A stretch of DNA of 63,793 nt, filler included, from Basidioascus undulatus (Eukaryota): assembly GCA_000826855.1 (NCBI GenBank). It is 3 parts of 3 records of this genome, joined end to end, with 100 filler letters (N's around TTAATTAATTAA, not from the genome) between each part and the next. Parts side by side here need not be neighbours in the genome. Positions count along the whole stretch, not along the records: positions 42,710 to 63,793 come from JTLS01000343.1; 2 more parts are not named here. One strand, 5' to 3'. The first letter of the stretch is position 1, and each line of letters opens with the position of its first letter. The notes beneath the pieces are model-generated. The model did no database searches, was not told where the DNA came from, and saw nothing but the letters and a program-made list of their open reading frames with translations. The position numbers and the translations under genes were made by a program. Below are positions 34,477 through 63,793 of this stretch, piece after piece.

Positions 34477-35491
34477 ATGCGCACCTCCACAATCCTCACC
34501 ATCCTCTCTCTTTCGGCGACCACATTAGCTGCTGTAGCAGGCGGCGCCGCTGCCGTGTCGGGCAACGATCTCGCGAAGCGAAGCCCTCAGGAGGAGGTAG
34601 ACGTCGGCGAAAACGGGGCAGAAAACGACTTCCAGAAGCGGGACGGTCGCGGTCGAGGCGGGCGTGGAGGGCGGAGCCGCGGGAGGGGGGGTGGCCGCGG
34701 TCGCGGTGGGCATGGAGGTGGCTCGAGGAAGGGAGGGCACCGCAAGGCGTATCATCAAAAGGTAAGTAGTTTGTGGGGATCTGAAACGCATGAAAGTACT
34801 CCTTTCCTAACGTCTTACTCTAGCCGCAAAAGCACCACTATCGGCCGAAGAAGGAGTACCACGTCCGCGTCCGTCTCTCCTTCCCCACCCTCCATTTCTT
34901 CACTCTGACCAGCTTCCTATGCAGCCGAAGAAAGTCTACAAAGTGGAGAAGCCCAAGAAAATCTATTACAAGCCCGCCCCCCGGCCGAAGAAAGAAATAA
35001 AATACGTGGAAAAGCCTGTCTACAAAATCGTCGAAAAGCCGGTGATCGTGGAGAAGGTCGTGGAGAAGCCCGTGGAGAGAATCGTGGAGAAGCCGGTGCA
35101 GGTCGTGAAGTATGTGGAAAAGCCGAAGAAGAAGGAGCACAAGTGGGGAGCGGGCTTCTTCGGCGACGACGGGTCCGACGATGGGTTCGGGAACGGGAAC
35201 GGCAATGGCAATGGCAACGGGAATGGGAACGGTGGGAACGGAGGAGATAACGGGAATGGGAATGGAGGCGGGAATGGGAATGGGAACGGCGGAGGGAATG
35301 GGAATGGAGGTGTGAATGGGAATGGGAACGGCGGAGGGAATGGGAATGGAGGTGGGAATGGGAATGGGAACGGCGGAGGGAACGGGAATGGAGGTGGGAA
35401 TGGAAATGGGAACGGTGGGAACGGTGGCGGTTTCGGCAATGGCGGCGGGGGTGGGGGCTCCGGTGGTGGGCAGGACGATGGGTCTAACTGA
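34477..35491 (+). CDS. Secreted low-complexity repeat protein (signal peptide, two KR sites, RGG, VEKP and Gly-Asn repeats), three exons
   Basis: TATAAAA at about 34407; MRTSTILTILSLSATTLAA signal; introns 34762-34822 and 34863-34924 keep the frame to TAA at 35491. Confidence 0.8.
35186..35440 (+). repeat. Coding GGGAAY/GGN tandem repeat encoding (GN)n/GGGN
   Basis: Long imperfect array of gggaat/gggaac/ggcaat hexamers inside the secreted protein's last exon. Confidence 0.9.
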
Positions 35492-42100: not shown

Positions 42101-42609
42101 TCTCGCGCCAGTCGAGCCACGCCCTCGCGCTCCAGAGCTTCGTAGAGAAGGTCGCCATCTTCGAGCGCGCGACGGGCTACGTCGACGCCGACCTCGCACA
42201 GCCCACGGCGTCCGAGGCCGTCGCGCAGACGGGCGCGAGGCTCTACAAGCTCGCGCCCCTGTACGACAAGTACCACGAGTACGCGGACCTCCTCGCCACG
42301 CAGGGCCTTGTAGCTATTGCCCTCAAGTACATCAGCTTGACGCCCAGTGACTACCAGGGCGCGCGCGGCGGCCTGTCGGACGTCCGGAACGCGAGGGAGA
42401 GACTCCACATCGCCGCGGGCGAGAAGCTCAAGGCCGCGGCGGCGTTCCAGCAGCAGCAGCAGCAGCAGCAGAAGGCGCCGACCGCCTACACGCCTTACGT
42501 CCCCCCTGCGCCGGCACCCGCGCCGGTGCCCGTGCCCGCTCCCACGGCTGCCCCCGCCGCCCCCCAGCAGCCGTCCCCCTACGACTCGTACGGCCCCTAC
42601 ACGCCCGCG
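39127..42609 (+). CDS. SEC31: COPII outer coat protein Sec31, 3' end lost in the gap
   Basis: [11 protein letters not shown]...[17 protein letters not shown]40 repeats ([26 protein letters not shown]), [20 protein letters not shown], alpha-solenoid region and start of the Pro-rich region. Confidence 0.96.
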
Positions 42610-42709
42610 NNNNNNNNNNNNNNNNNNNNNNNNNNNNNNNNNNNNNNNNNNNNTTAATTAATTAANNNNNNNNNNNNNNNNNNNNNNNNNNNNNNNNNNN
42701 NNNNNNNNN
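42610..42709. other. Artificial assembly gap linker
   Basis: 44 N + TTAATTAATTAA + 44 N, identical to the first linker. Confidence 0.98.
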
Positions 42710-43859: not shown

Positions 43860-44770
43860 TACCGCCACGTACAACTCATCCACCAATTGCGCGATAACTA
43901 CTGGGCGGCGATGAAAGCAAGGAAAGATGTAACCAGCGAGAGTTTCCTGTGGGCATTCCACAGTCCCTCGGAGATCACCGACCACCGCCTCTGTCTTGAG
44001 AGTCGCTTGCTTTCTTCCCTGCTCGATGTCGGTGTCGCAATCGAGCGCATGGAGACGAGCAGACTCATCCGCGATTCAATCGAGCAGGTCAGGGAAGCCC
44101 TCAAGAAGTTTGGGACGTTCTTGGACCTGCTTCGAAGTCCGCTCGTGACTGCTTGTATTGTTGGATCATCTTGGCCGACACAGTCATAATTTTCAGGTGA
44201 ACTACCGGACGGCACGCCTCGCCTACAGCTTGACCTGCTCCACTTCGACTCGTACCTCTCCCACTTCCTCCTGTGCCTTCGTTTCACGTTCAGCATGCCG
44301 TACCTCCCCTTCCCTCTCCATCCCTCCTTGCGCGAGCGGTCGTACTAGTTCGCCGGCGGAACGCTCGTCAAGCGCAAAGAGGCAGTCTTGCACGCAGCCC
44401 GAGCACTTGACCTTTTGCGTATGCCGAACCATACCTATTCAGCCATCATGCTCGTGCTTGGCACGCTGCTTCGTACGCGCGCGTGGGCGAGACACGCGAG
44501 CGTCCAGCTCCCGCTGAAAGAGAGCTACGCCGCCGACGTCGAGCGGCTGTTCGTGAGCCTGAACGATCTTGGCGGCTGGCCCGCCTGGTGCGCAGGAAAG
44601 CTTCGGGCGGTGCGGGCCTGGTGCGATGACGAGGCGGGCTTCGACAATCCTCCGGCGGTCGTCGAGCCGGAGCAGCCGTCCGCGCTGGCTCAACCCGCGG
44701 AGCAGACTTTCGACCCCCTCTCCTTGTTTGACTTTAGTTTGTTCTCTGTCTTTGGTAGGGATTGGATGAC
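43860..44770 (+). pseudogene. Possible 5'-truncated remnant of a fungal transcription factor C-terminus
   Basis: Coding-like fragments (LLRMPNHTYSAIMLVLGTLL...VERLFVSLNDLGGWPAWCAGKLRAV, acidic/aromatic tail FDPLSLFDFSLF) begin right after KRI1, leaving no room for a promoter or DNA-binding domain. Confidence 0.3.
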
Positions 44771-46682
44771 TTCGGCCGGTGGACGGGAGATGGGGATGTT
44801 GCGTCCTATGGTTTTCGCTCTTGGGAGGGGATGCTGCGGCGCAAGGCGGTGTTGATCAAAGCGGCGGAATGTGAAAGCACGTCTGGACATCATGCAGTAT
44901 TGTTGGTAGCTTATAGACGACAAGTGTAAAATCCAGTGTGCGACTTGTGTTGTCTATCCTGAAAGAACGATAGGGCGTGTGCACGACACTGCGGTCGAGA
45001 TTCAACGTGCCTGGTTTGCAGCAACGCACACTTACAGCATATATCCACCGTAGCGCATTAGGTATGAAATCCTCAAGGAAAAAGTTGTTTTAAGTCGCAT
45101 AGAATGTAGGTGTACTGGTCCGGTAGCGAACTGGATAACGCTCACGCTTTACCGGTTCTCCGCGCGCTGAAGTGTTGGAACAATGTCCGCCCTTCATACA
45201 TATTTGCCTGGGCGCATACATTACATGAAAGCACGTTTGATGCTTGCAGATCAGAGATTTCGGTGCGTGCATGCCGTTCTGATATCATATCTACTTATGT
45301 TTTTTTTTGTCCAATGCTTTTCAAAAGAAATGGATGGGGTTGACCAGACCTCAGCGTTGGCTTTGCCGAGTAGTCCGCCTGTCGCCCTCAGACACCTCGT
45401 TTAAGCTGTCTACTTCCTGGTCCTCTTGAGGTATCCCTTAGGGTGGCAGTAATAGGGGTAATGAAAAGATTGTATCACCGCCCGCACGGCAAAAGTAGAG
45501 TCCCTTTTGATGGACGGGCGTGACTATCCGAACGTTCACGTGCGGCTTAAGGTAGCATCGTATTCCTTCAATGTCCCCAACACAAGCGGCTCAAAGGTAC
45601 CTCCCTGCCGTGCCTATCCAAAAGAAACCCGCTCCGTGGGGACCAACACTCTCGAACACCGCCAAAAGAAGAGCCTTCTTTAGAGAAGTAATAGTGCTCG
45701 GGAGACTGTAAAGAAGAGGAGCGTTCTCGGCGGGTCCGTGGTCTACAAAAGGATTCGCCCTGATCAGTCAAAACGGTGAGGACTCCCATAGCTGCAAGGT
45801 GAAGGCTCACGGCACCTGGAGCTGTGCCGCAGGTTCGGGAGTCGGAGGGGCTCGGTCAAGCGGCGGATCAGAGAACGGATTACCAAGACAGGCAGGGGCT
45901 CGGACGGTGCCGCGTAGGGATGGTGGAGCGACAAGTCGTCGGACGGGACAGCCCCTTGCCAACTTTCTCCACGCTGTGAATTTGAATGTATCTAATCGAA
46001 GTGGTGTTTTAATAATCGGAAGAATGGGCGGCGGAAGAAGAGCGCAGTCGCGTCTCCGAAGCGATCCATAATTTCGTCGGGCAATCCGTCGGTGGAAATC
46101 TTGGGGTCGAAGTCGGTCGAACACAAGCCTGTGGTGGCCCTTGAAAGGACGCTTCCTGCCTCACCCAATGCTACATCACTCTCACACTGTCCCCCGGAAG
46201 TCAATTCCGGGGGTGCTGGCTCTGGTCGTTCTTGTGCTCATTGGTTGTTGCGGCGGGGGCGCCATTCTGTTGGTAAGCCGCGAGGCTTCCTTTTCTACGT
46301 AGCTTTGCTGGAGACATCCGAGAGAAACTCGATGATGAATTGATAAATGTACCAGGCTCTTTCGTATACCTTGCGTCGCCGGGTCTTGACGCTGTCGACC
46401 GCGTCGACCTCTGGCGCACCGCTTCCCCGTGTCGAACATCCTCGCCGGCCTCCCCCATCCCTACGCAGCCCCATTAGATCCTCCGCCCGCTCTGGCGGTT
46501 ACATAGACATTCCAACGCTCGACGAGCATCCCGAGAATGGCGACCTCCGCGCCCAGTGTGTAGAGTAGCTGAAATGTACTGACAGCAGTGTCGTGAGTGT
46601 ATTCATGTCTACAGAACATTGATACCTTCAGCTTCACAATACCACGCTTCACCAGGCGCATTCTTTGCACCCCACGCGCCAG

Positions 46683-47594
46683 TTAGTTGCTCCCCAGCTC
46701 CCAGAGCGTCCCGTTCCTGGAAATGCAATGATCGCTGAAGATGACATCTTTGTCAATCAAAGCCTTGCAAATCTTTCCGAACTGCAAAGGGGTTAAGCGT
46801 TCGCGGCAGCGTCGTGTGAAAGCAACTAGGTCGCTCTGGGCGCTTTGTCTGTTTCTCTCGTGCTGATCGCTCTCAGGATCCAAGAGGTCGACGCCAAAGA
46901 GCAGGATGATCCTCTCGAGAGACTCGACTGCTTCGATAAGCTTTTGAAGGCCTCGGTAATAGTCGCCGCTCAAAGCCCATCCGGGATATGCGCAGAGGAA
47001 ACAGACAGATTCGTGCATCGGAAGAAAGGGCGCACGAGCAGGAGAGAGTCGAAGTCTATTGTTCCGATAGCTAGGTGGGTAAGGCCTATTTGGAGCATAA
47101 GAAGACAAAGAGGTATTCAGCTCATCGAGGCCACACTCTCCGAAGAAGCAGGCTTAGACGACGTTCGGCATGGGGATATCCGAGGGGAATCTGTAGGTCG
47201 CAAATCGCTCGAGATTTGGAGTATAAGTACCGATGTCCTCCAAGAATGGGCGCCTCCCCGTGTTGAGGTTCTGAAACCCCGAGTCTACATAGCCTATAAT
47301 CCTGAATCCCGAATCCGCTTAGGAAGACCGACCGCACGAGCAGAGTAAGGCGAGGCCACGCCTCGAAGGTGGCAAGAAAGCTGAGGAAGCGACGCCCGTC
47401 GGCGGCTGGCGTCAGCGGCAGAAAGTCCACGCATGCCTATAGAAGCGGAGTCGCATGACGGTTAGGTCCCTCGAGACGAGGCACAGCAAAGCCAGTGTGG
47501 CCGAGTCCGAAGTGTATGCACGAGGATACGGCGGTGCCGCCACCTCATCGACAATGAGCTTCAGAACGTCAAGCGGAAGCGTTGGAGCGGGCAT
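46683..47594 (-). pseudogene. F-box-like/RNI-like gene, frame-disrupted
   Basis: MPAPTLPLDVLKLIVDEV...ATLALLCLVSR, then FLSFLATFEAWPRLTLLVRSVFL in another frame. Confidence 0.45.
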
Positions 47595-48369
47595 TGCGAG
47601 TAACATGGTGCCCTTAACGTGTAAACGCGAGGTTAATGAAATTAGGTTTGAGGCTTTGAATGAGGTGACTCGAGCGGACTCTGGCGGCGGGATGTGGCGG
47701 TTTGAACAGATAGTCGTGGTGCGGTGGCAAGAAGCCTCGAAGGGGCCCAGCGCCACCCCAATCCGTAGCTCCAGCCCGGTTGAAATCAATTGGAACCAGG
47801 CTGAATTTCAACATGATCCAACCTGTTTCAACCGAACTCCAACCTGTTGGGGCTCTTGTCGATAGGAGCCGCGTTCAGCTCACACCTCCAATGCGCTGCG
47901 TAAACAGAACCATAGAGTTTCAGAATGCAGGCTAGAATCATATGTAGTTACGGGGCTCGAAGACGCGAGAGGATGCTCACCACCTTCCCATGAAATTCGG
48001 TATTCACATAACATCTGTGGCCTGAAAACCAGGAAAACTAGTGGCTCGAGAAGCAGGGCACAAAAAGTAATGCAGACCAGAGCACGCAGCTCGTCCGGCA
48101 TCACCAGACTCTTTCAAAATCAACTCAAACCGCTGCGACTCTGTCCTGTTTCATTTCTTTTTGTAGTGCTGAATGGGCGGCACGGCCTAGTTACCTTCAA
48201 CCATCTTCTCCCGCGTCGCGGATCTTGTTTTGATTCTCTCTGGCATGCACTGGCTTGCTTTGGCTTGCTGTGGTCTCCTTTCCTTTCGACCATCACGGCA
48301 TTCGCCTTCTTGTGTTCCTCCTCCTACCCCCTCTCACTTCATACAAAGTCTACTCATAACTCGGCAGCT

Positions 48370-49500
48370 ATGCGCGCTTTCGATCGTTTCCCAAATCTCA
48401 TTTCTGAGCCAATCATTCGCGACGAAGGATCTCGTTCATCTTTCTCGTTTCGCGCCGACTGCACGTCCTCGTCGAACAGTTCCTTTACAGCACAGTGGGG
48501 GATAAAGACTCCCTGTCCCTCTTCCTGCGAACGGTCTCCGAGCGGCCGACGCTCGCCACTCACGTAGGTGAGATTCGCGCGGCTTTGAACGACCCAGACG
48601 AGCTCGACGCAGACTCTGGGTTCATGCACAGACGCCCATGTCATCGACCTTCTGCGACTCGTTCCCAATCTTTGGGTCCTCGTCTGCGCCGTCGCCCTCC
48701 CGTCCAAGCCCCTACAAGAGGGCATCGCTGCTCCGCCTGCATCGCTCGCGCAGGGCCTATGCTCCTTACACGAGCTTCACCTGTCCTGCTCCGACCGCGG
48801 CCATGTTTTCATAGTTGATGACAGCTTTCCGTGCTTTGCGTTACCTTCGTTGCGCAAGCTGCCGATTCACCGACTCGCGCTTCTCTTTGGAAGCCCGCAT
48901 ATCAAGGACATGCGCTTTCTCAGCGGTACCTCCACAGTCGAGGCAGCTCACTGTGATATGCTGCGATGAAGTCAGCCCCACCTTCCTAAGCCGCATCCTC
49001 CGCTGCTCTTGCGCACTGTCTCATGTCACGCTCTGCATGTTGAACGAGCCAGACGACATCAATGCGGTGGTGCACGACGGCCTGCTCCCGTACTCGCGCG
49101 AGACGATCCAGCAGCTCGAGTGATGGGGATCAAAAACCCGGCTCGGGGACTGCCCTACGATTTCCCATCTCTCTGACACTTTCACCTGTCTATTAGACAA
49201 CTCTTCGGCCTGGACAGCCGTTATCTTCCGCCTCGTCGCTCACCCGCTCCCCCCTCGGCCTATCCTTGCTGAAGCTCTCGCCCGACCTACGTCTCACAAG
49301 AGGGCGGGAGTCCGTCCAAGGTATTTTGGACTTCCTGGGAAGTAAGCGCACGCTCGCGCCTGGGCTCTTACAACTAACCATCGAACATCGGCTTTGGATA
49401 GACAGAGAAGCCCGTATTTGTGACCCTCCTGCGCAATGCTTGCGCCACAGCGGGCGTAAGGGATGTGGAACTGCATTGGATTGCGAAGGCGATCTTGAGA
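48370..49500 (+). pseudogene. F-box-like/RNI-like (LRR) gene, frame-disrupted
   Basis: Fragments in different frames: FDRFPNLISE, SLSLFLRTVSERPTLATHVGEI, VIDLLRLVPNL, FRALRYLRC, LLQLTIEH. Confidence 0.4.
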
Positions 49501-51739
49501 GTGCATGACAATCAGTGTACGGTATGACTGGCAGGGCTGGACCGCGAAGGCGGTTTTTCTGATGCATCAACTCTCCAGTGTGACTGACTCGTCCATGCGA
49601 GGCTGCAGTGTGCCTCGATCACCGCCGTGTATATGCTTGTGCAGGGGCGTATCAAAAGGACTGTTTTACATGATTCCCCCCTTCTGTCTATTTCAGTCAC
49701 GGCTCGCCGATGGCGAGGCCCACCCTCTCGTTTTCCGCAGACTCCAGCGGCCTGGCCTTGTGCAACGGGATCTGGCAACACCTTTGTTGAATTGCTGCCG
49801 CGGGACTTCCGTGGGTGCATTTAGAGCCGTCCACGCCCATACGGCCTTCGTAGTCAGAAGGCAGGATGAAATGTAGGCCGCGTCCACAAACGCCCGGCGG
49901 TGTCGATGTCCAAGGTTGCTTGCTGGGAACAGCGTCGCTGAGCGCCAGTGAAACTTGTGGACTGTCCAGTCCAGTCGCCGCGCAGACATATCCCGCAACA
50001 GTACCAAACTTACCAAACTGTGTATGAAACCTCCAGACCTCTTCCCCTGAGGGGTGACAAGAGGCTGAGAAACGCACCGTACTCCCAGCCGTGTGTACTG
50101 TGGGCACCCACCGGCATCGTCGCCCGCTGGGCTTGCAAACGGGGTGTGGGGAGATGCGCGCATGAATGTCACTGGTGTCCGAATGGGCACAGATGAAGGG
50201 TGGTTTAGAGAAAGACAACGAGAGGCCGACGGCACAGACGCGGAGTTTTCGACAATCCTGTGCCTCTTTCGCAGGGCACAGGTGTTCGTGCCAGACTGCC
50301 TTGGCGGAGGCTCATCCGCCTTTCTCAATCGGTTCGGAGATCTCCAGTATCTTAAACAGCGTTGAGTCCGACTTTTTCCCAGGCCCAATTAACACCCTGG
50401 TCAGTAAGGCCTGAGCGGGGAGCCACCCGCACCCGCCCGCAAGTGAGCCCGGCAGCTGTCAGGTCCCATGCGCATCAAGGAAATTCAACAGAAAGGGCTG
50501 CGCCAGAGCAAACGCAGAAAGAAGTGGGAAAGCCCCTACCGATTTCATCAGCTGAGCATTGGATGCATGCGATGCAGCTGCACTGCAGCGAACTCCGTCT
50601 GTTGGGCGTCGTCTGACCTGGGCCATTACACTCGGAATGCTGTATGCTGCATTCCCCTGCCCAGAACTCCGAACGGTCGAGGATCAAGGCGTCGCCTAGC
50701 GAAGATTGGCGGCGCTGCGGCTGTGTCGATCTGCCGTCTGCCGTCGCCGCGCCGTCGCCCCGAGTTCGTTGCGGGGGAATTTTTGGGCACAAAGAGAGGA
50801 TGTTTAGAACATGCGTTCCGAAAAAAATTACCATCCACATGTAATGAGACGAGAATGATGGAGCTGCTCTGTGGATCGACTGGAAGCTGCTGCACTGAAG
50901 TACGACGTTATCCCCCCACGCTCATCAACTATTACGCTTCGGACGATGTTCATTCGGTCTAATAAAAAGTGGAGGTTTGGTCCATCCATATTCAAGCATC
51001 TTGCGATGGGCTTGAAAGAGGTGGTGTGGCAACCAGCCCGTGAGGGGCCAGGCTGGCCGCTGGGTCAGAGGCTGGACGAATTCAGAGCTCCCAATACCAC
51101 TGCGCAGTGCAGCAGATCACTTTAGGACTTCAGGCATTGTATCTCACTACCCTTATAAGTGGGGAGTTTGCCCATTTGGGCCATAAGAGTGTTCACAATG
51201 TCCCTGAACGAGAGTGGGCCGTCGAAGGATGTCGCCAAAGTAAGCGCGCTGCAGGACCGTATGGAAACACCCGCGATGTGAGGTCAATTTAATGAAATGA
51301 AATTTTGTACAAAATTCTTCAAATTGACATCCTATCTCATGTTCCACCAGCCTCGATATACGCCGGATGGGGGGCACATGAAGGACGTTGCGGAACTCTC
51401 GTCCAGGCTAGGCCCTCTTTGCATGGGTTCACAAAGTAGCATTTGTTGTGTGTGACATCTTCATAATTTAGAAAATGAGTGAGGGCATGCAGTGCGCTCA
51501 GAAAATGCCCAACGGTGTTTGGCGCTTTGGTGGGGCGGTGGCTGGGATTCAGCTTACGGTTCGTGCGTCTTCCTGCGAAAGAAATAGCCGCTCGCCCCAG
51601 CGCCCCTCTTCTTCTCCTCGAACAAATTCACGCGTACGTCCCGCCCCTAATAACTATGGCAAAGTTTGCTATGATTCCAATGCTCACCATGCCTCCTCCT
51701 CCAGGGACTTAAAAGTTGTCGCCATGGCCTTACACCGTG

Positions 51740-52039
51740 CCAGGTGTACCGTTCCCGTCCAGCCAGAGCGAACCCGTCTATTCCGGCCCCGGCTGTGTCA
51801 CGCCAGCAGCCGCGGTGCTTTGACTTGGTCCGCCCTTCCTATGCCCGCTTGTTCATGTGGGAGCTCAGCCCCGCCGCTGGAGGCGCGACCGCGCAAGCGG
51901 ATGCGCCCAGGATCGCGACGGGGTTCCTTCGTGGGCGTTTGGCGGGTGGGGAGGGGGACCGATATTCCTTTGTGTGCGTTCTTTGTTGTATGCAGATAGA
52001 GGCCGAGGGTGCGGTTGTTGCATGGGAGATTTCGCCTGG
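51740..52039 (+). ncRNA. Candidate structured RNA element of unknown class
   Basis: Nested helices close a multi-way junction; the central hairpin 51825-51962 is capped by CCGC-GCAA-GCGG; many G-U pairs that form only on the + strand. Confidence 0.4.
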
Positions 52040-52269
52040 ATCACGCTTTGAATTGCTTGCGAGATGCCCCACCACCGATATGTGTGGAAAGATCTGAGGC
52101 CAGGCAACTCCTCATGTTTGGATTTGCTCTTTGCCTCTGAGTCATTGTAAGATGCTATTCCACAACGCTCTCAGGAATTGAGGGGCATGTGCCGACCGTC
52201 TCCTGGCTTATCCAAGGCTGAGGAGAAGGCAGGTTGTACAGCTCCGAGGGAGGCGTTGCAGAGATGCCT

Positions 52270-53460
52270 TCGTTCGAGCATGGCGCTCGACCGCGGCAAT
52301 AAACTGAACTATCCGACATTTGTTGCGGATACCGACCCTCATACTTGGAATTCGTTGTTGGCTCCCGACGTTTGTACTGCAGACGGTGTCACGCCGTTGC
52401 AACTCCAGCGCCGACGTCTTCCGCCGGGTATCCTTTCCCGCAGCCGCGTTGCCCAAGGCGAGTTGAAACCCGACATTGCGTGCGCGGCAGGCATTGACGA
52501 GATCTGGTGCGGGGGTCCAGGTACTTCGACGCAAATTGGGCATATGGGCGCGGTCATTTGGTTTGCCTGAGTTGTCGATAGTGATTTCTGCCTCATGCTC
52601 ATGGTATGATACCTGCCGTTCCAGGAGCCTGGCCATCGCCTTTCAGACCTTTATGATCCTCGTCCGCCGCCGCCGCCCCCGCAGACGCCTCGCCTTAGCC
52701 ATACTGGAGTTCGGGTAGACCGTCGTAATCATCCTACCAATTATCGTCCCCCTCGCTATCGCGCGAAACAAGGAGTTCTACGGGCCATGGAGCGCGATTG
52801 GGTGCTGGGTCAACCCCGAAAGAGACGTGTCGCAGCTGCTGTACTTCCACGTGTGTAACATCGAGCCACTTAAAAATAGGACCAGCGCGCTGACCATCCA
52901 AGCCGCTTCAGGTGTGGGCCCTTGGCTACATGATCGCAACATCTACGGTATGCGTCTTCTCTGGCTGGACAGAATAAGAGTCCACCTCAACGAGTCAACG
53001 CAGTCAAAACAGTGCGAACATTTCACCAACAGAGACGACCGCAGACGTTTAGAGAGCGCGTTTCCAACTTCATGGTGCGCTTCTCCCTCATCTCGCCTTG
53101 CCATAATAAGGAAATTGTCGAGGAGATGGCGCAGGGCTCAATGAACGGGTCGACGCCTGGCACAGACGAGTCGGTTGGCATCCATACTCGCATTGGGCGG
53201 CACGTTCTGAACAGGGCAAGAAAGCTTCTGCTATGTGAGTGCGATATCATATTCTCCCTGAGGTACGGCAATGCAGAAGCTGATGCACGCTGCGTTCAGA
53301 GATCGTCTCGTCTGGGCCCCCTGCCTCATTCCGCTCTGGATCGTAGAATTCGGATCAAAGTCCCGGATTGGAATCCACCCTTCGGCCTCATCAGCGCTGT
53401 CGGGTTTCTATTCGCTCTTTCAGGTGTGTCACATGGCATCCTCTTACCACGATCTCGCTG
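52270..53460 (+). pseudogene. Decayed Git3/cAMP-receptor-like GPCR
   Basis: WCGGPGTSTQIGHMGAVIW, AIAFQTFMILV, FG*TVVIILPIIVP, FYGPWSAIGCWVNP, ARKLLL, VGFLFALSGV occur in the TM3-TM7 order of fungal Git3-like receptors; in-frame TAG at 52716-52718. Confidence 0.5.
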
Positions 53461-54876
53461 TTAAGGATGGGGTCGGCCCTTTAGCTTCTCGGACGTTGTG
53501 CTTTTCGTAGTGACACGTGAACGAGCTGTGAGTGCTTGCCGCCGCGGACTGTAGTCAGTGGTGTCTGACGTGTCGATGCTGGCCTGCGCGATGGGAACGG
53601 AGTTGCCTTAGGCTGACTTGCTGTCAGTACGGTCAGTCAGTCACGGTGCTAAATCTGTTTCGGATTTCTGCTTGCTTTGCTCGTTCGCGCTCACTCTGCA
53701 GTGCCTGGCCGCGGGCGCGGTCCAGTCAGCTGCTTCGTTCGCTTTCCGTATTCAGTTTTGTTTTTCCATTTTTTTACGCTTCAGTCGTACATCTGACCGG
53801 CTGCCGCTGCGCGACAGCGCCGGTCAGCTGCTCCCCACTCGACTCGTCGCCGAGCCGCCCATTTGAAGTTGATTGTGAAGCCAGTTCCGTGACAGACGTC
53901 CACAGTGAAAAGGCTGAGAAGGTACAGTCCCGGCGGGCTTTTCACGAATCCGGGAAACGTATACACTGTCGGTGGGGCGGAAGCGGATGATATGCGGCGA
54001 GCGGCAGAAGACCAAAATCCCTCCCACTGCCGCCAACAACGCAACCAGAATCAGCAGGAGAGTATTGGGCAAAATAGGGACGATGAGCCAGTATAAAAAG
54101 CAGCAATATTGCGTAGGACACGGCAGGCAAAAATGCGCGGTGACCTCGTTAAGGAAAGGGAAGACTTGAAAAGGGCTGTTTACAGCGGCCCCGACCACTT
54201 GACGTGGGTACGGGAATATCGCTTGCCATTCCCTGTCCTCCTTCGCCAAATCAACCATGACTCGCAATGGGACTCCGACGAGAAGGCGACACTCGAGCGA
54301 CGCTCGAGCAAGCTGCGGGCGTTACCGGCGAAGATGAGGTGGTCGCGGTGATGCTAACGGAGCAGAGACCAGTTTCAGGTGGATGGGACAGCCAGCCGCC
54401 AATGGTTGACGACAAGCAACCTAGCTCGCTCGAGATGAAGCTTGTCTGCCCCTTCATCGGGTACCTGAGATCGCGGATCGATTTCTGGTCAGCTAAGGCG
54501 TCAAAGAACGTCCAATCGAAAGGAAAAAAAAAAGGCTTTCGATCGTGGCACTGTGCGAGAGTTCAAATGAGCACCGGCTTGCGCGCGAGGCCGGACACCA
54601 CGATGCAGTCAACAGGCGAAAATCGAGGTAGTGAATGAATGTCAAGATGCAGGGAAGGGTGAAATGCAGAGCAATGACAGTGAAAGATGCGAGACGAATG
54701 AACCATGGCGAAGGACGAGGCAGATAAGGTATAAAACGATGCAAGCGAGCTGCCGGGCATCGGGTGGAGAATGGGAGAGCGATAGACAAGGGGGCGGGAA
54801 GTTTGGCGTGCAAGCGAAGGAACGCGAACGGCCTGTACGGCGCGTTATTTACTTCGTCCCACGAAGAAAGCGCCAG

Positions 54877-57800
54877 TCAACCGAGAAAAAAAGGCGAGTT
54901 GAACTGTCGTGAGGTGCGCTTGGAGAGGGTGCGTGGGTCCAGCGTCGGTGACGTTGGACGACCGCTATAAGATAAGCTGTAAAGGTCAGCATCACCTGGC
55001 GTGTTCCTAAATGGTGAGGATCAACGTGAACGCACTGCGCAAGCGAGGTAGTTCTTTCGGGGAGCTTTGGTGCTGGACCGCTGCGTAGCCAAGGCTTTAT
55101 CAGCTTCATTGCTCAGAAGAAAACTACTCGGACAGCAGCGTACCGATGCCGAGTGGATCGAGCCGAAGGTGGTCGAGCGAGGGACGACGGGGGCGCTGGC
55201 CCGCTGCGCGATGGTGACGATGTGCTCTGCGGCCGCGCCAGCGACGAGGGCAGCGGCGGGGAGGCTTGCGACTGCAACGACGCCCTCGCGGCATGTCTGC
55301 GCGCCTCTTCCCGCTCCTTCTCCCTCCCCCTTTCCCGCTGCTTGCGCTCCTCCCTCGCCCGGTTTTCCTTCTCCGCCATTTCCCTCTCGCGCACCCTCGT
55401 CGCCTCTGCCTCCTTCCTCTCAGCCGCATACCTCCTACGCGCGACGATCCCCCGCGCAGCCGCTTGCACGCGCGTCCAACGTGCGCGCTCTTCGGAAGCG
55501 CGTTGTCGCTCCACAACCATCGCGCGGCGGACGATCTTGGCGCGAGCGCGCGCTTGGATCGCAGTGATGAGCGTAATGAGCGCCGCGCGAAGCTTCTCGA
55601 GGTGCGCGAGAACGCCGGCGCGGAGAAAGACTTTCGTGTGCCCCAGCGCGTACAGCTCCGGGTTCGTCACCGTGCCGGACAGGATGCGGGTGCACGCCGC
55701 GACCAGATTAGGCGTTGGCGTGCCGGGCGCCTCGACGAGGATGGCGAATCTGTCCATCCGCAAGCCGTAGTCAGCTCATCTGCGAAGCGGCGAACGAGAA
55801 CTAGCCGCATAAACGGCAGCAAGAGAAAACGCACCGCTCGACGAAGTCAGCGAATACCATTTTCGAAGGGTACCCCGCCCGACTGATCCGGATCGTCTCG
55901 AGCACGCCGCACGCGCGGAGCTGCCCGAGCACCTTCTGCGCGTCGAACTCCCACGGGCGCTTCGAGTCTGCGGGCTTGATGCAGCGAATGTAGTGCGTCT
56001 CCGTTGCGTTGATGGATGCCATGAGGCTGGCGAGCGAGCCCTTGAACGTCGACGCGAGCGTGGGCTGCTTCCTCGCGGCGCCACCGCGGCGGGCCGGACC
56101 GCCAGACGCTGGACGGCTGTCGGGCGCGGACTCGCCTCCGCCGCGAGCGCGCTCACACACCTCGCGAAGAAAGTCGTTCGTCGAGCCCGCCAAGAGCGCC
56201 AGGTGTTCATCCGGCACGGCGTCGCGGTTCTTCTCGAGGAAACCATCGACGTCGTACGAGACTTCGAGCGCGTAGTGCGCGATGGTGAAGCCCGCGCTGC
56301 CGAAGAGCGCCTTCTTGTAGCTCGGCGGCTTGAGCTGCTCGTCCAGCTTGCGGAGGAGGCCGGCGTCGGAGCCGGAGGGGAGGCGGGATTGCTCGTCGAT
56401 GAGGGAGAGAAGACCGAGGCGGCCTTCGATCATGTCGATGCAGGGTTGGTTGTCCTGGGAGGGCTCAAGATCGTTAGCTCTTGTTAGTCCGGCTGCAGTC
56501 GGAGTATGGACGCACAGGGAAGTCAATGAAAGCCACGTTGATGCCTTCGCGTGCGTACTCCTCCTGCGACAGCTTGAACGTGTGCACGTTGAACTGCTCC
56601 GACCTCTGGTCAGCCTCTACCCAGCCTAAACTGAGTTTTGAACGAAAGGCGCACCTCCTGTTGAAGCTTCTCATTCGCATAGTTGATGCAAAACTGCTCG
56701 AACGAGTTTCGCTACAAGCGAAACACGTCAGTTCACACCCCACTGCCCAAACCACCCGCAGGCACAAGTGTGCGCTCACCTCCATATCCTCAAACCCGTA
56801 AATATCCAGCACGCCAATGAAGCTGCTCGCCCTCGCACGCGCCTCCTCGCCAAGCAGCTTCTCATTGAGCACCGCGACGAGCCAGTCGAACAAGCACGTG
56901 TAAATATGCCTCGCGACCGAGTCGCGCGCGACGACCGCCTGATCGCGGCTGAGGGCGGTGACGATCTTCTCTCCGCGCGCGACGTCGATCTGCTTCTTCA
57001 CGATGCCCTTCTGGAATGCGGGTGCGGGGACGCCGAGGAGCGCGGCGGCGCGGAGGAGCGCCGGATCGTCGGACGACACGATCGCATCTGACGAGCGCGA
57101 GGTCGAGGTGCTAATGGAGATGTTGCCGAGGTGGAGGAGCGCGGCGAGGAGGCGGAAGATGGACAGCTGCTGTGAGCGCGGGATGTTGAGTGCTGTGAGC
57201 GCCTTTTGCGTCGCCCGGAAGGACGCGGCGTCGTCTACGCCGGGTATGGTCGACGAGCCGCCTTGGTTGAGGTAGTGATACTGTGCAACGCGCGCCCAGT
57301 CAGCCTTGACAGCGGAAACTCGCTGCTTGGTAGCAGGACCCACTTCATTTGCTGATCCGATCCCGAGTTCTCGTCGCAGCTCTGGAGAAGCGCCGGCACA
57401 GAGTTGATAGAAGATGTGGGTGTTGCGCTCGTGCTTGGGCTGGTAGACTAGTCGCGAGCGCTCGAGGAGGTATATGCGGATCCGCGCGCCGACAATGTTC
57501 TGGTTCGCGTCGAATAGGATCTGCAAAGCAAGAACATTGATCAGCAAAGAATCTCCCTGAAGATCAACTAATGCGCCAGCGCACCTCCAGATATCTTCCG
57601 AATCGCGAGGAGTTGTCGTTCCTGATGGTCTTCGCGTTCCCGAACGCCTCCATAACCGGGTTGGCTGTCCATCACCGCCTCATCAGCCCTCCTCCTTCTC
57701 GAGCAGTCCCTCCCAGCCCAGTCACCAACACTCACTAGCCAAGATCTGCTCTTCCGTGCCCGTGACCGACTCGCCCGCCTGCCCCAGCGCGGCGAAGTAG

Positions 57801-58578
57801 CGCATGACGTGCCGCGCCGAGACGGTCTTGCCCGCGCCGCTCTCGCCGCTGACGATGATCGTCTGGTCGCGGCGGCGCAGGCTGATGCCGTCGTGCGCAG
57901 CCTGGGCGACCGAGAAGAGGTGAGGGGACGACGGCGGGGTGACGGAGGAGTAGGCGCGGATGTGGGCGGGCGAGTAGAGCGTGGTGGAGGCGTAGGGGTT
58001 CAGGGCGATCAGGACTAGGCCGGAGAGGGTGTAGATGCGCTGTTTGAAGGATCCAGAGGTTAGCTCCTGACGTAGGCCCGTAGAGGTGTCATCACGCACT
58101 TGGGAGGCGAAGCGTGTCCGGACGGCGTGTAACACTGCCGCGGGAAGGGCATCAGCAAAGCCAAAGGACAAGAACGTGTGCCCGAATTGAAGACGTACTG
58201 CTCCCTTCGTTTAAATGGGGCAGGTACTTGAGGTCGTCGACAGCCTCGGACTCGGGAACGTTTCGGACGGGAGGCAGTGCTGCACTTCCCGCCTTGACGG
58301 TGATGGTTGTCTCCTGCACCGCCCAACCGCCATAAGTCCAGGGCCCTGCTCCCAGATATGACCCAGGCAACTCAAACTACTCACCGTGCCATTCTCCGCG
58401 ACCACCCCGAGCACAAGCGACCCGTCCTTGCCCTCACTCCGGCTCCGAATCTCGCCGCCTATCCAGCCCTCCGCATCGTCCCTCAACCAGCTGTCCCACC
58501 CTCCAAAATTAGCCTCCCGACAGCTACGTCGACCAGAAGCATCACCCACATGCGCGTCCCAACCTCGTAAAGACTCAT
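54877..58578 (-). CDS. Class V-like myosin heavy chain with complete motor, two IQ motifs and a very short tail
   Basis: [131 protein letters not shown]. The stop is at 55113 unspliced, or at 54877 using two further canonical introns. Confidence 0.93.
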
Positions 58579-59581
58579 CGTCCGCGGTCCTGTGTCCGCG
58601 AAGATCGATCGAGCTCAGAAGCTGCGAGGGTGCGCTGTTGCTGCCCCTGTGCAGCTCGAATCGCCAGTACGCGGTCGAGCGGGTATGATCGCTCGAGTCT
58701 AGCTGTGATCTATGCCGAAATGCGGGTAACGCTGGATGTATAGAGTGAAAGATGCGGGTTTGTGATGCAGGTTGCTGGGCAAGTCGGCCGGGGACGTTGG
58801 AACGACAACCCTGGGCGGCGATGGCGGCTCTGTAGCTGCGAGCGTCCGTCAGCAGCTCCCGCGTCGAGTTCGTGTTTTGCTTTTTTTGCCCCTTCACCCT
58901 GTTTACCCTCTTTCGTCGGCTCGCTCGCTCGTCCATCCGGCGACTCTGTCGGTAATGGAATGCCTTAGATTCTCAAGAGACTTACAGACTGTTTTTGAAA
59001 GTTTTATCAAAGTTTTTGCGCTGTATTCTCACAGCCTGTGGACGCGCGCCGTCTTGTCACCGCACAGCCAGTGTAAAAGTACAGAATCTAGGGACGGACC
59101 ACCCCCCGTTAGGTTGCTTTTCGGTGCCCGACAACCAACGACAACACGATCCTTCCAGAAGGAACCAAGTTTGTACCTTTTTTTTAACTGTTTGAACTGA
59201 ATTCCACGGATCAAGGCCCGCCCTCATCCCTATCCGTTGTTGGCATATTCAACGGCAGTAAATTGCTCTGCCCAAAACTTAACAGCATGTACAATATGCG
59301 CAACGCAGACATTGCCTTCCCGATGCATTGAACTGACCTTCTTTCCCCCGTATGTTTCTTGTTGAGTCTTGAATTATTTCCGGAAACCCATGTCGAAATA
59401 CTTCGTTGATCACTACTTCATCACTGGTTGCGGCAGAGCTCGACTGTTCACCCTCGATTCTCCTACTCGCCATCTCGCTGTCCCTACAGCCTTTCCTTTT
59501 ATATCTAAGCATCTGAACCGTTTGGCACTAGGGGGTACTATAAATCATACGGTCGCTGTTCCCTCTATCTTGCAGCTGCGT

Positions 59582-59609
59582 AAGACTGCTCAAGACTGCT
59601 CAAGACTGC
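59582..59609 (+). repeat. Short tandem repeat, 10-nt unit AAGACTGCTC, about 2.8 copies
   Basis: aagactgctc aagactgctc aagactgc read directly. Confidence 0.85.
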
Positions 59610-60474
59610 ACATCCTCGAGGATGTCTTTCCTAGTTGGAACGGATGTGGTCCGGTCCTCAGTGCCTTGCAGCCAAGACATTTCCAAGGAGAGGAGCTGTT
59701 ATACACCGATAAATGACCAACAACGTCGCTTCGACGACCAGTTACAAGAGCTGCGGGACGAGCTCCGCCCTTGCGGCCCGCGTGCAGTCGGCCCTTCTTT
59801 GCTGCCCAAGCAGCGAGCCACCAGACCCACCACAGTAATGAAAAGCAGTATCAAAGTGTTGAAGAAAAATATGCGCTGTCCATACCGGGCTGTCACAGCG
59901 TCTTGGAACACTTGGCCTGTCGATCACTCGCTGACAGGTACGCACGACCTCTGCGGGGTGGCAACGCCCGACGCCCGTGCGGTGAGCGATCCTGTCATGA
60001 AACGGTAGTCCCGCGGGCGGGGAAGCGCCCCTGGACTGACCTTGTACTCCCGCAGCATTTGTAGAATCAAATCATACGGCTGATCGCTGTTATCCCACCG
60101 TAGCAACGGGCTTGATCCTCAACTGCATCTTCCATCTCCCATCCACCTCTTCTCCTCCACTTTACTAGCTGCACCTGCACCGTGCCGGACGCGCTGTGCG
60201 CTGCGCTCTCGAGAACTCCACCTCCATCCGTCCTGAGGTGCTCAGGCTATTCTTGCAGTCCTAGATCTATCTCGCTCCTCCGCAGCCGATACGGCGCCCG
60301 ACACTCTTTCCTCCAACTGGATCCACGCCCGCACGGCAACTCGCTCATCTCATCGTCACTCCAATCCTCCCCATCCATCCACCACTACTCTCCATCTGAT
60401 CCATCAATATATACATTGGCATCCAGACCCATCATCGACGACGGCGAGCGAGACGCAAGGGACGCGCTCGCACG

Positions 60475-62360
60475 ATGCCGTCCTCCTTCGGCCTTCTACC
60501 TCTCCTCGCGTCCGCGCTGCTCGGCCTCCCCTCCCCAGCGCGCGCATACCTCTATGTGCGCCAAATCCAACGCAGCCCAACGTCCCCCCCCTAATAGAGT
60601 TATCCCTTCCAGATCCACACCACTATCCTTAATGAGACGTTCGTGCTCGACTCGAAGACGGACAACGTCGTCGTGCAGGGCTCGGGCTCGGACGGCGCCT
60701 CCGCCCCCGCCAACACCATCTTTGCTATATTCGCACTCGTCATCGGGGTCGTCGTTGCGACCGTCGGGACGCGAACGCGGTGGAGGGTTGGGTGCGGGTG
60801 CGCGGTCGGGCTCTTGGCGTCGCTCTGTGAGTACTCGCTACGTCAGTGCCACTGCGTCTCGCTTTTGCGTCCTTCCCATCGTCTACGCTGGCATCCTTGG
60901 ACGACTCGGGGCTCCCGCTGTTCTCTTCGTCCCCATCGCAATCGAGCCATCTGCTCGCGCTCCCGCTTCCATTCTTGGTCGAGTCTTCTATGGCAGGCGC
61001 CGAGTGCGGGGAAACGGGGTCGTTCGACGGACCGAGCGCGCAGCGCAGTCTCGTTTCACTGCGGCCGCCTTATCCACACTTTCCAAATATCTCGCTCGCT
61101 CGAAAACAAACTGACCGATATCTTTTTGGTGACTTTCAGTTATGTGGCTCGCGCTTGTGAATGTCATGCACGAGGGCAACCTCGCGAGCACTGTCCAGAA
61201 TTCTGACCTCGTCATCTTCGGGTGTACAGGGGTGCGTGCCTATATTATCTCAGGCCTTCATCATGACTAATGATGCATTAATTTTGGGGTTAAACAGGCC
61301 ATCTTCCTCGTCGCTCTCCTCGTCGTCGTGCTCTTCGGGGGACAGCTCCTGGGATGGTTCCTGTTCGCCCCTCTCGGCGGTGAGCAGCCCTCTTGCTCCC
61401 ATCCGCGAGATCATTGAGCTCACCTATAATTCACCCCACCAAAGGCGGGGGGTTTGGCCTCCTCGCAATGCTGATGATGCCGACGGACGTCGTGCCCAAA
61501 CCCGCTCGCATCGTCGTCAGCGCCGTCTTCGCGGGTCTCGCGGTCTTCGGGCTGCCGTTCCCGAAGACTCGGCCGTGGGCCGGCGTGAGTCTTCCCTCGT
61601 GTGCATTTCCGAAAGATGAATGTACTGAACGATCATGCGCAGTCCTTCGGCGCAGGCGGGACAGCCAGCTTCCTCCTCGCTCTCGGGATCGACCTCCTGC
61701 TCAACAAGGACGCCGCGATGAGCTACGGCCTTCGACGCTTCATGGACAACAACATCCATCACTTCTTCGTACGTCCTCTCAACCCATCCCGTCCTTTCCC
61801 TTTGCGTCGCTGACATAAGCGCTGCCTGGAACCTGCAGGACCTTCACGACCCTTACGTCCCCAAAACCAGTACCTACATCATCTCCGGCGTCTTCCTCTT
61901 CTTCACCTTCCCCATCGCCTACTTGCAACACCGCTTCCACCCCTCCCCGTTCCCCTCCTCCGCCTCCACCTCATCCCTCCCCGGGCCAGGGCACTGGGAG
62001 CGCCCCAGCGGGACGCACAAGCACCGTCCGTCGCTGTACAACCTCCTCCTGCGCGACCCGTCCGTCGTCGCCCTGCACAAGCAGACCGGCCCAGCGCCCG
62101 GCTCGCTCCTCGCACCGCCTACGCCGGGAGGGTACAGCTCGGAACCGGACTCGCCGGAGAAGGAGAAGCTGCGGGAGCATGCGCGCGTGTCGATGGCGGG
62201 CTCGTCGCCTTATGGGAGCGAGGAGGGCGGGCTGGCGTACATGACGCCGCTGCCCCAGGAGCAGGCGCCCTTTGTAGCGCCGACGGGTACTGCGCTCGAG
62301 CCCGTTAGGCAGGAGAGGGTCGTCTGGAACGAGGGGCAGTGGAAGCCTGCTGAACCATGA
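60475..62360 (+). CDS. Multi-pass membrane protein with signal peptide, DUF4203-like
   Basis: MPSSFGLLPLLASALLGLP signal; TM exons IFAIFALVIGVVVATVG, FMWLALVNVM, IFLVALLVVVLFGG, GTASFLLALGIDLLLN...SYGLRRFMDNNIHH; Pro-rich tail to TGA at 62360. Confidence 0.75.
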
Positions 62361-63793
62361 TACTCTCTTGTTTTCTTTCGTCTCATGTTTCACACCCTTA
62401 TCACCCCGGATCCTCTCCGAAGATACCCAGGCACACTACCGCATCGTACGTTGATACCCAGCAACCATCTAGACTCACATCAGCCCTTCACGTCCGTTAC
62501 CCCATCTCTCCATAGCATCTTTAGTCACACCGCCGCCGCACATTCCATTGCAGGACACTTTCGCAATATCCATATCAGTTTCACTTGCATCGCTTCTTGT
62601 ACAGCCACTGTAACCGTTCCACCTGAGTAGCACACGCATTTACTGTGCTCTTTTGTTTCCTCTGTCATGTTCCGCAGAATGCGCCAAATTCTAGTTGCGT
62701 AAGGTCTGGAGAACCTATCAACTGTGAGTGGTAGGCGGTAAGGTAGCGGGGGGTACCGAAGAACGGTCCGGACAGTCAGTGGGCGCGGGTTGGTGGGCAG
62801 ACAGTACAAGGAAGGGGATTGGTCAGTGGAAACCCTCGAATCGCCGAGGCGTATGCGGCGCCTTTTTTGAGTGGCGGGTGAAAGGATAGCGAGATCTGGG
62901 AGAGAAATTAGGTTGACGTCGCTGTGGTGTGCACTGCGAGAGCACGACGTGCGTGTGATCCGGGGAACACACGGCACGGACAAACGGGTAGGAGGAAAAT
63001 GCCAGAATCCCGCAATTTAAAGGTCTTTTACAGCTCCGAAGAGCGTCTTGAGCGAGGTGAGTTGCTGGAATTGCTTGGCTGGACTTGCGGAACTTGAATA
63101 GTCAACCTGTCTATGGAGGAGGGTGAGGCTTCCGGAGAGGGTGCTACACGAAGGCACGTGTTAGTTATCACCGCAAGAGCCGAGGGTCGCTGGATACAGA
63201 GGGGAGGCTAGGGGTGGAAGAGAGGAGACGCCTCCAGAGAGGAGGGAGGAAGCTCGCGGATGTGTCAGTGGGACGACAAGATGTCTGAATTCAACACATC
63301 ATAGATCTTCTCGCCTCTGCAGGTTTTCCGTGGGTGCCGTACGGGCAAGCGAACGAGGCGACGGCCATGGATGCATGGCCAGCGGTCGGCCTTCAGCCTG
63401 CAGCTGCTGTCGCCCTGCTCCACCGCTCGACACGCATCCCGTCTCTTGTGCAATAGGATTGCGTAAGAACAAGTTTACTTTGTGGAGCGATGGGCGAACC
63501 CCTCCACCCTTTAGAGGGCTGCAGCAGTCCGCACGCCCGCCCGAAACTCTCGAACGTAAATTAGGCTATATGTGAATTCTTCCTCCTACTCCTCCTCTCT
63601 CCTCCTACAGCTGGAACGGGGGTACGAAATGCATAAATACAGTCCGCCATCTTCCTCCTCCCAGCCTAAGCCGTGCACCCCTCCTGCTGCCCCTGCCCCT
63701 GCCCACTCAAAAACCCATTCAACGCCTCCAGCTCGCTCTCGCTCAACCCCACCTCTCCTCCTCCCCCTCCCCCCAGCCCCACCTCCTGTCCAG

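Follow-up and report, generated by a model that had tools for sequence, protein, structure and literature searches.

A short class V myosin derivative without a coiled coil or DIL tail in Basidioascus undulatus

Our analysis concerns a 63,793-nucleotide stretch of the Basidioascus undulatus genome (assembly GCA_000826855.1; hereafter the window), in which a myosin gene lies on the minus strand. In its product of 946 residues, a class V motor is followed by two IQ motifs, then by a charged helix, and finally by a basic tail of 90 residues rich in Ser and Pro. The gene is a real, expressed, and constrained class V derivative that departs from canonical myosin V (Myo5) in both neck and tail, having lost IQ motifs 3 to 6, the coiled coil, the DIL domain, and the acidic site on which the tail docks. 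An earlier sequence-only reading had placed it outside the fungal myosin classes I, II, V, and XVII, a claim that needs qualifying, as the motor phylogeny and the intron positions put the gene inside class V as a derivative.

Transcript and motor

The gene model was built from donor and branch-site scans and comprises 14 exons and 13 GT-AG introns of 59 to 85 nt each, with a single open frame free of internal stops and a GC content of 0.80 at third codon positions. Three public runs (X1, X2, and X3) cover the stretch, none of which is recorded as RNA, and their contigs were compared over window positions 44000 to 63793. X3 shares its sample with X2 and amounts to 15.7 million letters, with depth recorded in 15 of the 30 bins. 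Its record 17 is a spliced contig of 3315 nt that matches the message exactly, with no other letters in its six listed pieces. These pieces end at predicted exon borders, and the gaps of 45, 136, 257, and 256 nt correspond to the small exons between them. The contig also set the last-exon acceptor at 54964, 12 nt later than in the scan-based model, which shortened the protein from 950 to 946 residues; the corrected model predicts 3315 nt between the contig ends, precisely the observed size. Because the contig runs through the stop codon into 248 nt of 3' untranslated region (UTR), no coiled-coil or DIL exons are spliced on. We infer that X3 is RNA-derived, since every intron has been removed and only parts of the stretch are covered, even though the run is labeled 'DNA?' by a guess and represents one sample. 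There is no sign of a processed extra copy, since the depth of X1 and X2 over the gene ends is at flank level. The X1 and X2 contigs span 53718-63793 with no other letters and no gaps, indicating that the locus is correctly assembled; both runs are perhaps the source of the window and hence not independent of its sequence. The window itself contains no recognizable coiled-coil or DIL coding sequence: a tblastn search with 17 canonical Myo5 tails returned only five weak matches (E 0.04-0.55), three of which fell within the IQ/charged part of the gene itself, and with a profile of 17 canonical tails none of the 2032 six-frame segments reached E ≤1. The absence of a cargo-binding tail and of a downstream DIL, as first read from the DNA, is thus borne out by both the tail searches and a contig that ends after the short tail.

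The motor contains all of the elements that had been taken as signs of an intact class V-like motor, namely the N-terminal Y..GTR.W..D...GW motif, the P-loop (residues 160-167), switch I (212-219), switch II (441-446), the expected loop 2 ending, the SH1 helix (682-690), and the converter. The whole model aligns to basidiomycete Myo5 over residues 2-821 at about 50% identity. The first matches of the exon 11 piece are likewise basidiomycete Myo5 proteins, the full-length ones being 1430-1650 residues long with a DIL and 43-61% identical. The best solved relatives are myosin Va and Vc, while myosin X and VIIa score lower. No close orthologue was present among the 120 matches listed, and of the 53 loci from a metagenome scan, not one exceeded 62% over any long stretch. 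Measured against 32 reference class V motors binned by column conservation, the protein carries the consensus residue at 226 of the 257 columns with ≥95% conservation and at 99/148, 57/120, 40/144, and 17/78 columns in the successively lower bins, which amounts to 88% at near-invariant columns vs 22% at variable ones. Judging from this pattern, the motor is under constraint, though more changed than the other divergent class V rows. The P-loop, switch I, switch II, and SH1 helix are intact, as is the acidic position of the TEDS rule (Glu386), and the net charge of loop 2 is +4, within the range of +1 to +7 in seven comparison proteins.

A further departure lies at the site that receives the folded tail. 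In the off-state of myosin Va, the globular tail is held by D134 and D136, and mutating these residues brings the ATPase up to the level of a two-IQ motor (PMC9733927). The aligned residues are Pro131 and Ser133 in the window protein, whereas both positions are acidic in 134/134 canonical proteins. Among short Myo5 proteins of other basidiomycetes (described below), both are acidic in 18 of 19 from Mycenaceae and in 1 of 10 of the Omphalotaceae type. The loss of the docking site may be linked to tail loss, and acidic residues there may also serve other roles.

Five of the 11 motor introns occupy the same positions as in a canonical Myo5 locus (L002, the one locus compared in full, by eye), and a sixth is one codon off that locus and matches protein P0111. 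These shared positions indicate a DNA-level duplicate rather than a retrocopy. Another contig, present in all three runs (X1 record 8; X2 record 15, 54 kb; X3), matches short motor blocks of the gene at ≥80% (window 55885-55995, 56201-56289, 56371-56439, 56650-56708, 56789-56824, and 57580-57749). Loose ends and inserted letters of this contig, reverse-complemented by hand, give HFKK just behind switch II and SCAGYPSRWT just behind the SH1 helix, both canonical Myo5 forms, where the window gene has DMER and another run of 10 residues. This second class V gene is likely a canonical Myo5, as read from motor fragments only; the canonical copy elsewhere in the genome, which the sequence-only reading had wished to see checked, has been found as far as motor motifs go. 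Contig depth provides no ranking of expression between the two class V genes.

Neck and tail

As the sequence-only reading had proposed, two IQ-like motifs 30 residues apart follow the converter, at residues 765 and 795. The second matches IQ2, IQ3, and IQ5 of Myo5 without preference, while the first is degenerate and nearest IQ1; Pfam detects only the second, at E 0.97 and below its cut-off. Canonical rows have Gln at all six expected IQ places in 16-17 of 17 proteins, and the window protein lacks this six-IQ array at 23/25 spacing. Its converter-to-IQ1 link is also 22 residues long vs 23 in 132/132 measurable canonical proteins, and a link shorter by one residue would turn the lever by about one helical step.

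The IQ motifs are followed, again as read originally, by an E/R/K-rich run and then by the Pro/Ser tail. Residues 808-853 (46 residues) are 67% charged and 6.5% hydrophobic (3/46), compared with averages of 76% and 9.6% in published single alpha-helix (SAH) domains of myosins (PMC5378345). AlphaFold2, given the single sequence, predicts one unbroken helix over residues 739-862 with no fold after it. A heptad coil was not apparent, given only three hydrophobic residues among the 46 and the lack of resemblance to canonical tails (a dedicated coiled-coil predictor was not part of the analysis). From its composition, the charged stretch would make a poor coiled coil but is plausible as an SAH of moderate quality. 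At 0.15 nm per residue, the lever is estimated at about 16 nm, or 9 nm without the charged helix, vs 22 nm in canonical Myo5.

The 90-residue tail contains 13 Lys/Arg, 2 Asp/Glu, and 44 Ser/Thr/Pro. The motif PSSLARP occurs twice in it, with 6/6 nucleotide differences between the copies being synonymous, and a tail repeat of this length arose in 9 of 20000 shuffles, the repeat having been noticed before it was tested. The synonymous differences suggest that the tail, like the motor, is under constraint. Pfam identified no tail domain in exon 12, and a search with the neck-and-tail exon returned only six weak matches, all to animal myosin II. Atlas matches comprised IQ and myosin clusters, all under 0.9, and serve as leads only. 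An old frameshift in the tail was considered and judged unlikely, as all differences between the two repeat copies fall on third codon positions when read in the used frame. A resemblance by eye between the tail end and two Mycena tail motifs was dropped when a profile test was unsupportive. The coordinates of all features are collected in Table 1.

Table 1. Features of the myosin gene in window coordinates
Feature	Position	Strand	Details and basis
Whole transcript, extent of spliced contig	54629..58804	-	226-nt 5' UTR, 2841-nt coding sequence with stop, 248-nt 3' UTR; X3 record 17
Exon 1, coding part	58550..58578	-	ATG at 58578; model and contig
Exons 2-4: N-terminal SH3-like region, motor start	58100..58490 (58490-58385, 58313-58199, 58134-58100)	-	Summed 256 nt equals contig gap
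Exon 5: purine loop, D134/D136-equivalent site (Pro131/Ser133), P-loop 57847-57824	57736..58039	-	Contig and alignments
Exons 6-7: switch I at 57620-57597	57344..57664 (57664-57585, 57520-57344)	-	Summed 257 nt equals contig gap
Exon 8: upper 50-kDa region, TEDS-position Glu386 (56971-56969), switch II 56806-56789	56780..57280	-	Contig
Exons 9-10: relay helix and loop	56516..56711 (56711-56655, 56593-56516)	-	Lengths fit contig gap
Exon 11: lower 50-kDa region, loop 2 (56157-56065, net +4), SH1 helix (55893-55867)	55835..56454	-	Contig
Exon 12: converter, two IQ motifs, charged helix, first tail half	55144..55749	-	Contig
IQ motif a, residues 765-776, degenerate	55524..55559	-	Nearest Myo5 IQ1
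IQ motif b, residues 795-806, full consensus	55434..55469	-	Motif comparison
E/R/K-rich helix, residues 808-856, candidate SAH lever extension	55284..55430	-	Composition, AlphaFold2
PSSLARP tail motif, two copies	55250-55230, 55190-55170 (within 55170..55250)	-	Differ at third codon positions only
Exon 13, tail, 45 nt	55036..55080	-	Equals 45-nt contig gap
Exon 14, coding part: last stretch of the basic Ser/Pro tail, stop codon (54879-54877)	54877..54964	-	Contig

Relatives, known systems, and origin

The same architecture, which the sequence-only reading had suggested looking for in relatives, was found in Mycenaceae and Omphalotaceae. A search of 1.84 billion representatives identified two short class V-like proteins, from Mycena epipterygia (987 residues) and Lentinula guzmanii (1225 residues). 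A follow-up profile was built from these two proteins plus three window exons, a seeding that favors their kind. Among the 120 rows listed for this profile were at least 17 full-length Mycenaceae proteins (951-1012 residues) and at least three Lentinula clusters (1225-1243 residues), along with five models ending at or near the end of the motor and one fused model; the rows included full-length Myo5, and short proteins of other lineages could rank lower. All of the full-length short relatives have a motor, one or two IQ motifs, a charged helix, and a basic Ser/Pro tail, and DIL was present in 0 of the 10 scanned. The window protein shares this layout and likewise has no DIL. In eight species, both a short copy and a full-length Myo5 were among the matches, and the short proteins of both families carry only generic database names. 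The Mycenaceae proteins (Mycena, Roridomyces, and Favolaschia, 951-1012 residues; e.g., KAJ7116423.1) resemble the window protein in their class V motor, charged helix, and basic tail, and the Omphalotaceae ones (Lentinula, 1222-1243 residues; e.g., KAJ3710358.1) have the same layout. The IQ motifs differ, with a spacing of 23 in Mycena and a single IQ in Lentinula vs two at 30 in the window protein. The tails differ as well: the Mycenaceae tail profile recognizes the Lentinula tail (0/500 shuffles scored as high), whereas it gives the window tail a score of 3.5, reached by 1157 of 2000 shuffles, and the C-terminal motif common to the Mycenaceae and Lentinula tails is absent from the window tail.

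Several further observations were made among these and other short proteins. Proteins P0133, P0328-P0349, P0353, P0182, P0309, and P0310 form a DIL-less Myo5 paralogue family of Mycenaceae and Omphalotaceae with conserved tail motifs, and many Omphalotaceae gene models end at the intron after the motor. P0354 (Mycena kentingensis, 1332 residues) joins a short Myo5 to a PF01974 domain and is probably an annotation merging two genes. P0137 (Rhizopus arrhizus, 1079 residues) is a class V protein with several IQ motifs, a short coil, and no Pfam DIL, and is of equal length in many strains; P0143 from Chytriomyces (1147 residues) resembles it by eye.

Canonical basidiomycete Myo5 has six IQ motifs at 23/25, a coiled coil, and a DIL, in contrast to the two IQ motifs at 30, charged helix, and 90-residue disordered tail of the window protein, which also lacks the acidic brake site and has the shorter converter link. 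With Cyathus striatus Myo5 (P0113, 1605 residues), for example, the alignable part covers motor and converter (residues 2-821, about 50-53% identity), and both proteins have an N-terminal SH3-like start. Second class V copies are also present in other fungi, as S. cerevisiae Myo4p and S. pombe Myo51, although these are ascomycete proteins of about 1470 residues, whereas the window protein is a basidiomycete one of 946. Myo4p is monomeric and non-processive alone (PMC2064653), and its globular tail binds the She3p adaptor (PMC2867299). An IQ region followed by a lever-extending charged single helix has been described for myosin classes 6, 10, and 45 and for Acanthamoeba Myo5A/5C (PMC5378345). 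In the S1 Table of that paper, Myo5 accounts for only three of the 56 basidiomycete rows, each time with the SAH at residues 1040-1056 of a full-length protein, and none is a basidiomycete Myo5 with an SAH behind two IQ motifs. The SAH-lever myosins belong to other motor classes or kingdoms and have longer, higher-scoring helices than the window protein, in which neither structure matches nor Pfam on exon 12 revealed motor or tail domains of SAH-lever classes (6, 7, 10, and 45). Baboolal et al. reportedly engineered in 2009 a myosin 5a with two IQ motifs and an SAH, as in the window lever; that construct is said to have kept its dimerizing coiled coil, which the window protein lacks. A class V paralogue without a coiled-coil tail, myo5D (ID 138262), has been reported from Mucor lusitanicus (PMC11286281). 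There is thus some precedent for a fungal Myo5 copy that lost its tail, although this Mucoromycota gene is only mentioned there, not studied. The species list of PMC5583752 includes Gymnopus luxurians and Lentinula edodes, and short copies may be annotated in its inventory. No paper describing a DIL-less basidiomycete Myo5 was found in the full-text literature searched, from which subscription journals are largely missing.

Phylogenetic placement was examined with trees that took in mostly class V rows, without named Pucciniomycotina Myo5. In a FastTree of 128 rows, the gene falls inside basidiomycete Myo5 (support 98), on its own. A 28-row mixture-model tree was drawn from a 47-row set by leaving out S. 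pombe Myo51, Saccharomyces, Tortispora, Calcarisporiella, Rhizopus, Fimicolochytrium, Tulasnella, and near-duplicates and by adding P0189 and P0144. It again places the gene in basidiomycete Myo5 (91/87), on a long branch (1.3 changes per column) that is the longest in the trees. A plain LG tree that joined the gene to the short group and other long branches (support 29, with a long-branch warning) was not relied on.

A separate origin of the window gene is the more likely one. The less probable alternative, compatible with the mechanism proposed below, is that a single old duplication close to the root of Basidiomycota gave rise to it as well as to the Mycena and Lentinula short myosins, most lineages having since lost the copy. 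The layout common to all three speaks for a single origin, as do the 22-residue converter-IQ1 link, which recurs in 18/18 measurable Mycenaceae short proteins, and six uncommon residues shared with the Omphalotaceae type; the LG tree joined them too, and the approximately unbiased (AU) test does not reject grouping with the Omphalotaceae type (p = 0.08, as for grouping with P0111). Yet the mixture-model tree places the window gene outside an Agaricomycetes clade (100/99) that holds both short groups, and the AU test disfavors grouping it with all short proteins (p = 0.042) or with the Mycenaceae (p = 0.024), while the two short groups may belong together (p = 0.31); with five such tests run, these values are marginal. 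The failure of the window tail in the Mycenaceae tail profile, which the Lentinula tail passes, also counts against a single origin, as does overall residue sharing with the short groups, which is no higher than with unrelated divergent myosins. Moreover, one intron position and one loop length of the window gene match P0111 rather than Agaricomycetes Myo5. Taken with the intron signals, the P0111 match may hint at an affinity of the organism with Pucciniomycotina. We accordingly regard it as possible, but rather doubtful, that an overlooked fifth basidiomycete myosin type exists: a class V derivative with one head, a charged helix as its lever, and neither tail nor brake, that arose by one early duplication, survives here and in Mycenaceae and Omphalotaceae, and performs a tether/tension job undescribed for fungal myosin V. 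If the origins are separate, then evolution arrived at this design at least two times, each time with the converter-lever link shifted and the tail-docking site eroded.

Proposed function and surroundings

We lean, by a modest margin of belief, toward a non-processive motor with one head and no brake that serves to tether actin or to put it under tension. According to this proposal, a class V gene would have been duplicated at the DNA level and then rebuilt behind the motor. The two IQ motifs would bind two calmodulin-type light chains, and the charged helix would extend the lever from about 9 to about 16 nm, compared with about 22 nm in canonical Myo5. Because there is no coil, the protein would be single-headed and one molecule would be unable to walk. 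Without a globular tail and acidic docking site, it would have neither the folded myosin V off-state nor Rab/adaptor cargo. The basic, phosphorylatable tail may serve as an anchor, whether on membrane, on actin, or on an adaptor that recognizes the repeated motif. Groups of such motors would tether actin or generate tension on it, and vesicle transport would be left to the other Myo5. The probability left over by this proposal and the alternatives below falls to an active but non-motile actin binder and other uses.

Several observations weigh against parts of this interpretation. The composition of the charged run fits the SAH that had been read from it, but its charge pattern is not clearly above chance: favorable minus unfavorable i+3/i+4 pairs number 9 vs a shuffle mean of 0.7, a value reached by 479 of 5000 shuffles. 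The helix also contains a glycine, its SAH-like score, devised here, is 0.32 (canonical coils 0.12-0.22, Lentinula 0.39-0.49), and a helix predicted by single-sequence AlphaFold is the default outcome for such a composition. Among the motors compared, this one has changed most, with 31 near-invariant columns altered vs 16 in Mycena, 27 in Lentinula, and 22 in S. pombe Myo51. Substitutions at conserved sites include K220R, Y257T, F448M (after switch II), W488V (relay loop), P543A/R544L, N656A, and R692K, and its kinetics may therefore differ. No close orthologue emerged from the protein, exon, and metagenome searches. The basic-hydrophobic score of the tail is 0.52, under the usual mark of 0.6, and a second tail frame is open through exons 12-14 (55300-54838, minus strand) with a codon score of 0.35 vs -0.04 in the used frame. 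Finally, the run with the spliced contig bears the label 'DNA?' and stems from a single sample, and the other class V gene is known from motor fragments only.

The more serious of the competing explanations, though a good deal less probable than a tether, is that the protein is still a transporter, its heads being paired or clustered by an adaptor on the helix or tail (as She3p/She2p do for Myo4p) or by a self-pairing helix, so that the complex walks with special cargo such as mRNA. Monomeric Myo4p, non-processive alone, is processive in multi-motor complexes (PMC2064653, PMC3257522), the constrained repeated tail motif could be an adaptor site, and the lever is still fairly long. Myo4p, however, binds She3p by its globular tail (PMC2867299), and the window protein has no folded tail domain; nor does a helix with 3/46 hydrophobic residues offer a heptad seam for self-pairing.

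We consider it unlikely that the gene is instead a decaying duplicate, transcribed and spliced, whose tail was lost by truncation or frameshift and whose motor is drifting to inactivity. Its branch length, the 55 changes at columns conserved at ≥90%, the lack of a close relative in the searches made, the weak codon bias of the last two exons together with the open alternative tail frame, and the adjoining gene-poor, repeat-bearing DNA of about 10 kb would all fit decay. Nonetheless, 946 codons contain no stop or frameshift despite much change, the changes avoid conserved columns, all catalytic motifs are retained, and the divergence of the tail repeat is purely synonymous. The codon score of the motor is also as strong as that of the neighboring gene (0.42 vs 0.37, both genes being in the training set), and parallel genes are maintained across Mycenaceae. 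Silence with neutral evolution, the outcome expected of a truncated pseudogene, was thus not what we found, given the spliced contig and the constraint upon motor and tail. An assembly or annotation artefact, with the true gene continuing to coiled-coil and DIL exons elsewhere, is very improbable. In its favor, the single run that yielded the spliced contig is of guessed type, and contigs can miss minor isoforms, but the contigs of two runs cross the locus without a gap or a differing letter, the spliced contig passes the stop into the 3' UTR, and the window is without tail-like coding sequence. No message joined to distant coiled-coil or DIL exons was found.

Basidiomycetes have been described as keeping one member of each of four myosin classes (PMC2375034), a set to which an expressed second class V gene with a rebuilt neck and tail adds. 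The look-alike family in Mycena and Lentinula (shiitake) implies a motor design hidden in databases under generic names. These proteins also offer a natural test of questions so far studied mainly by engineered constructs, namely whether a charged helix can replace IQ repeats as a class V lever, how a myosin V behaves without cargo tail and autoinhibition, and which motor surfaces relax after tail loss. Lentinula edodes provides a cultivable system for a short-Myo5 knockout.

Elsewhere in the window, the next gene (60477-62360, plus strand) is transcribed away from the myosin and encodes a multi-exon membrane protein with a Pro/Ser-rich end, one piece of which was tested and had no Pfam match. 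On the other side, about 10 kb (44000-53700) gave no Pfam match in 4/4 long frames tested. It has short repeats that recur in other contigs (47.3-47.7 kb and 48.4-48.5 kb) and likely represents mobile-element remains; position 48696 is C in the window and T in the X1 and X2 contigs. Two runs of 88 N lie near 20-22 kb and 42.6 kb. A frame at 34811-35491 (plus strand) with Lys/Pro/Val/Glu repeats and then a long Gly-Asn run had no Pfam match, and neither did 40489-42657, which by eye resembles Sec31. Pfam neighbors between 1698 and 43651 include an EF-Tu-type GTPase, a UAA transporter, CobW_C, TIP49, a NIPA Mg transporter, an enoyl-CoA hydratase, and KRI1.

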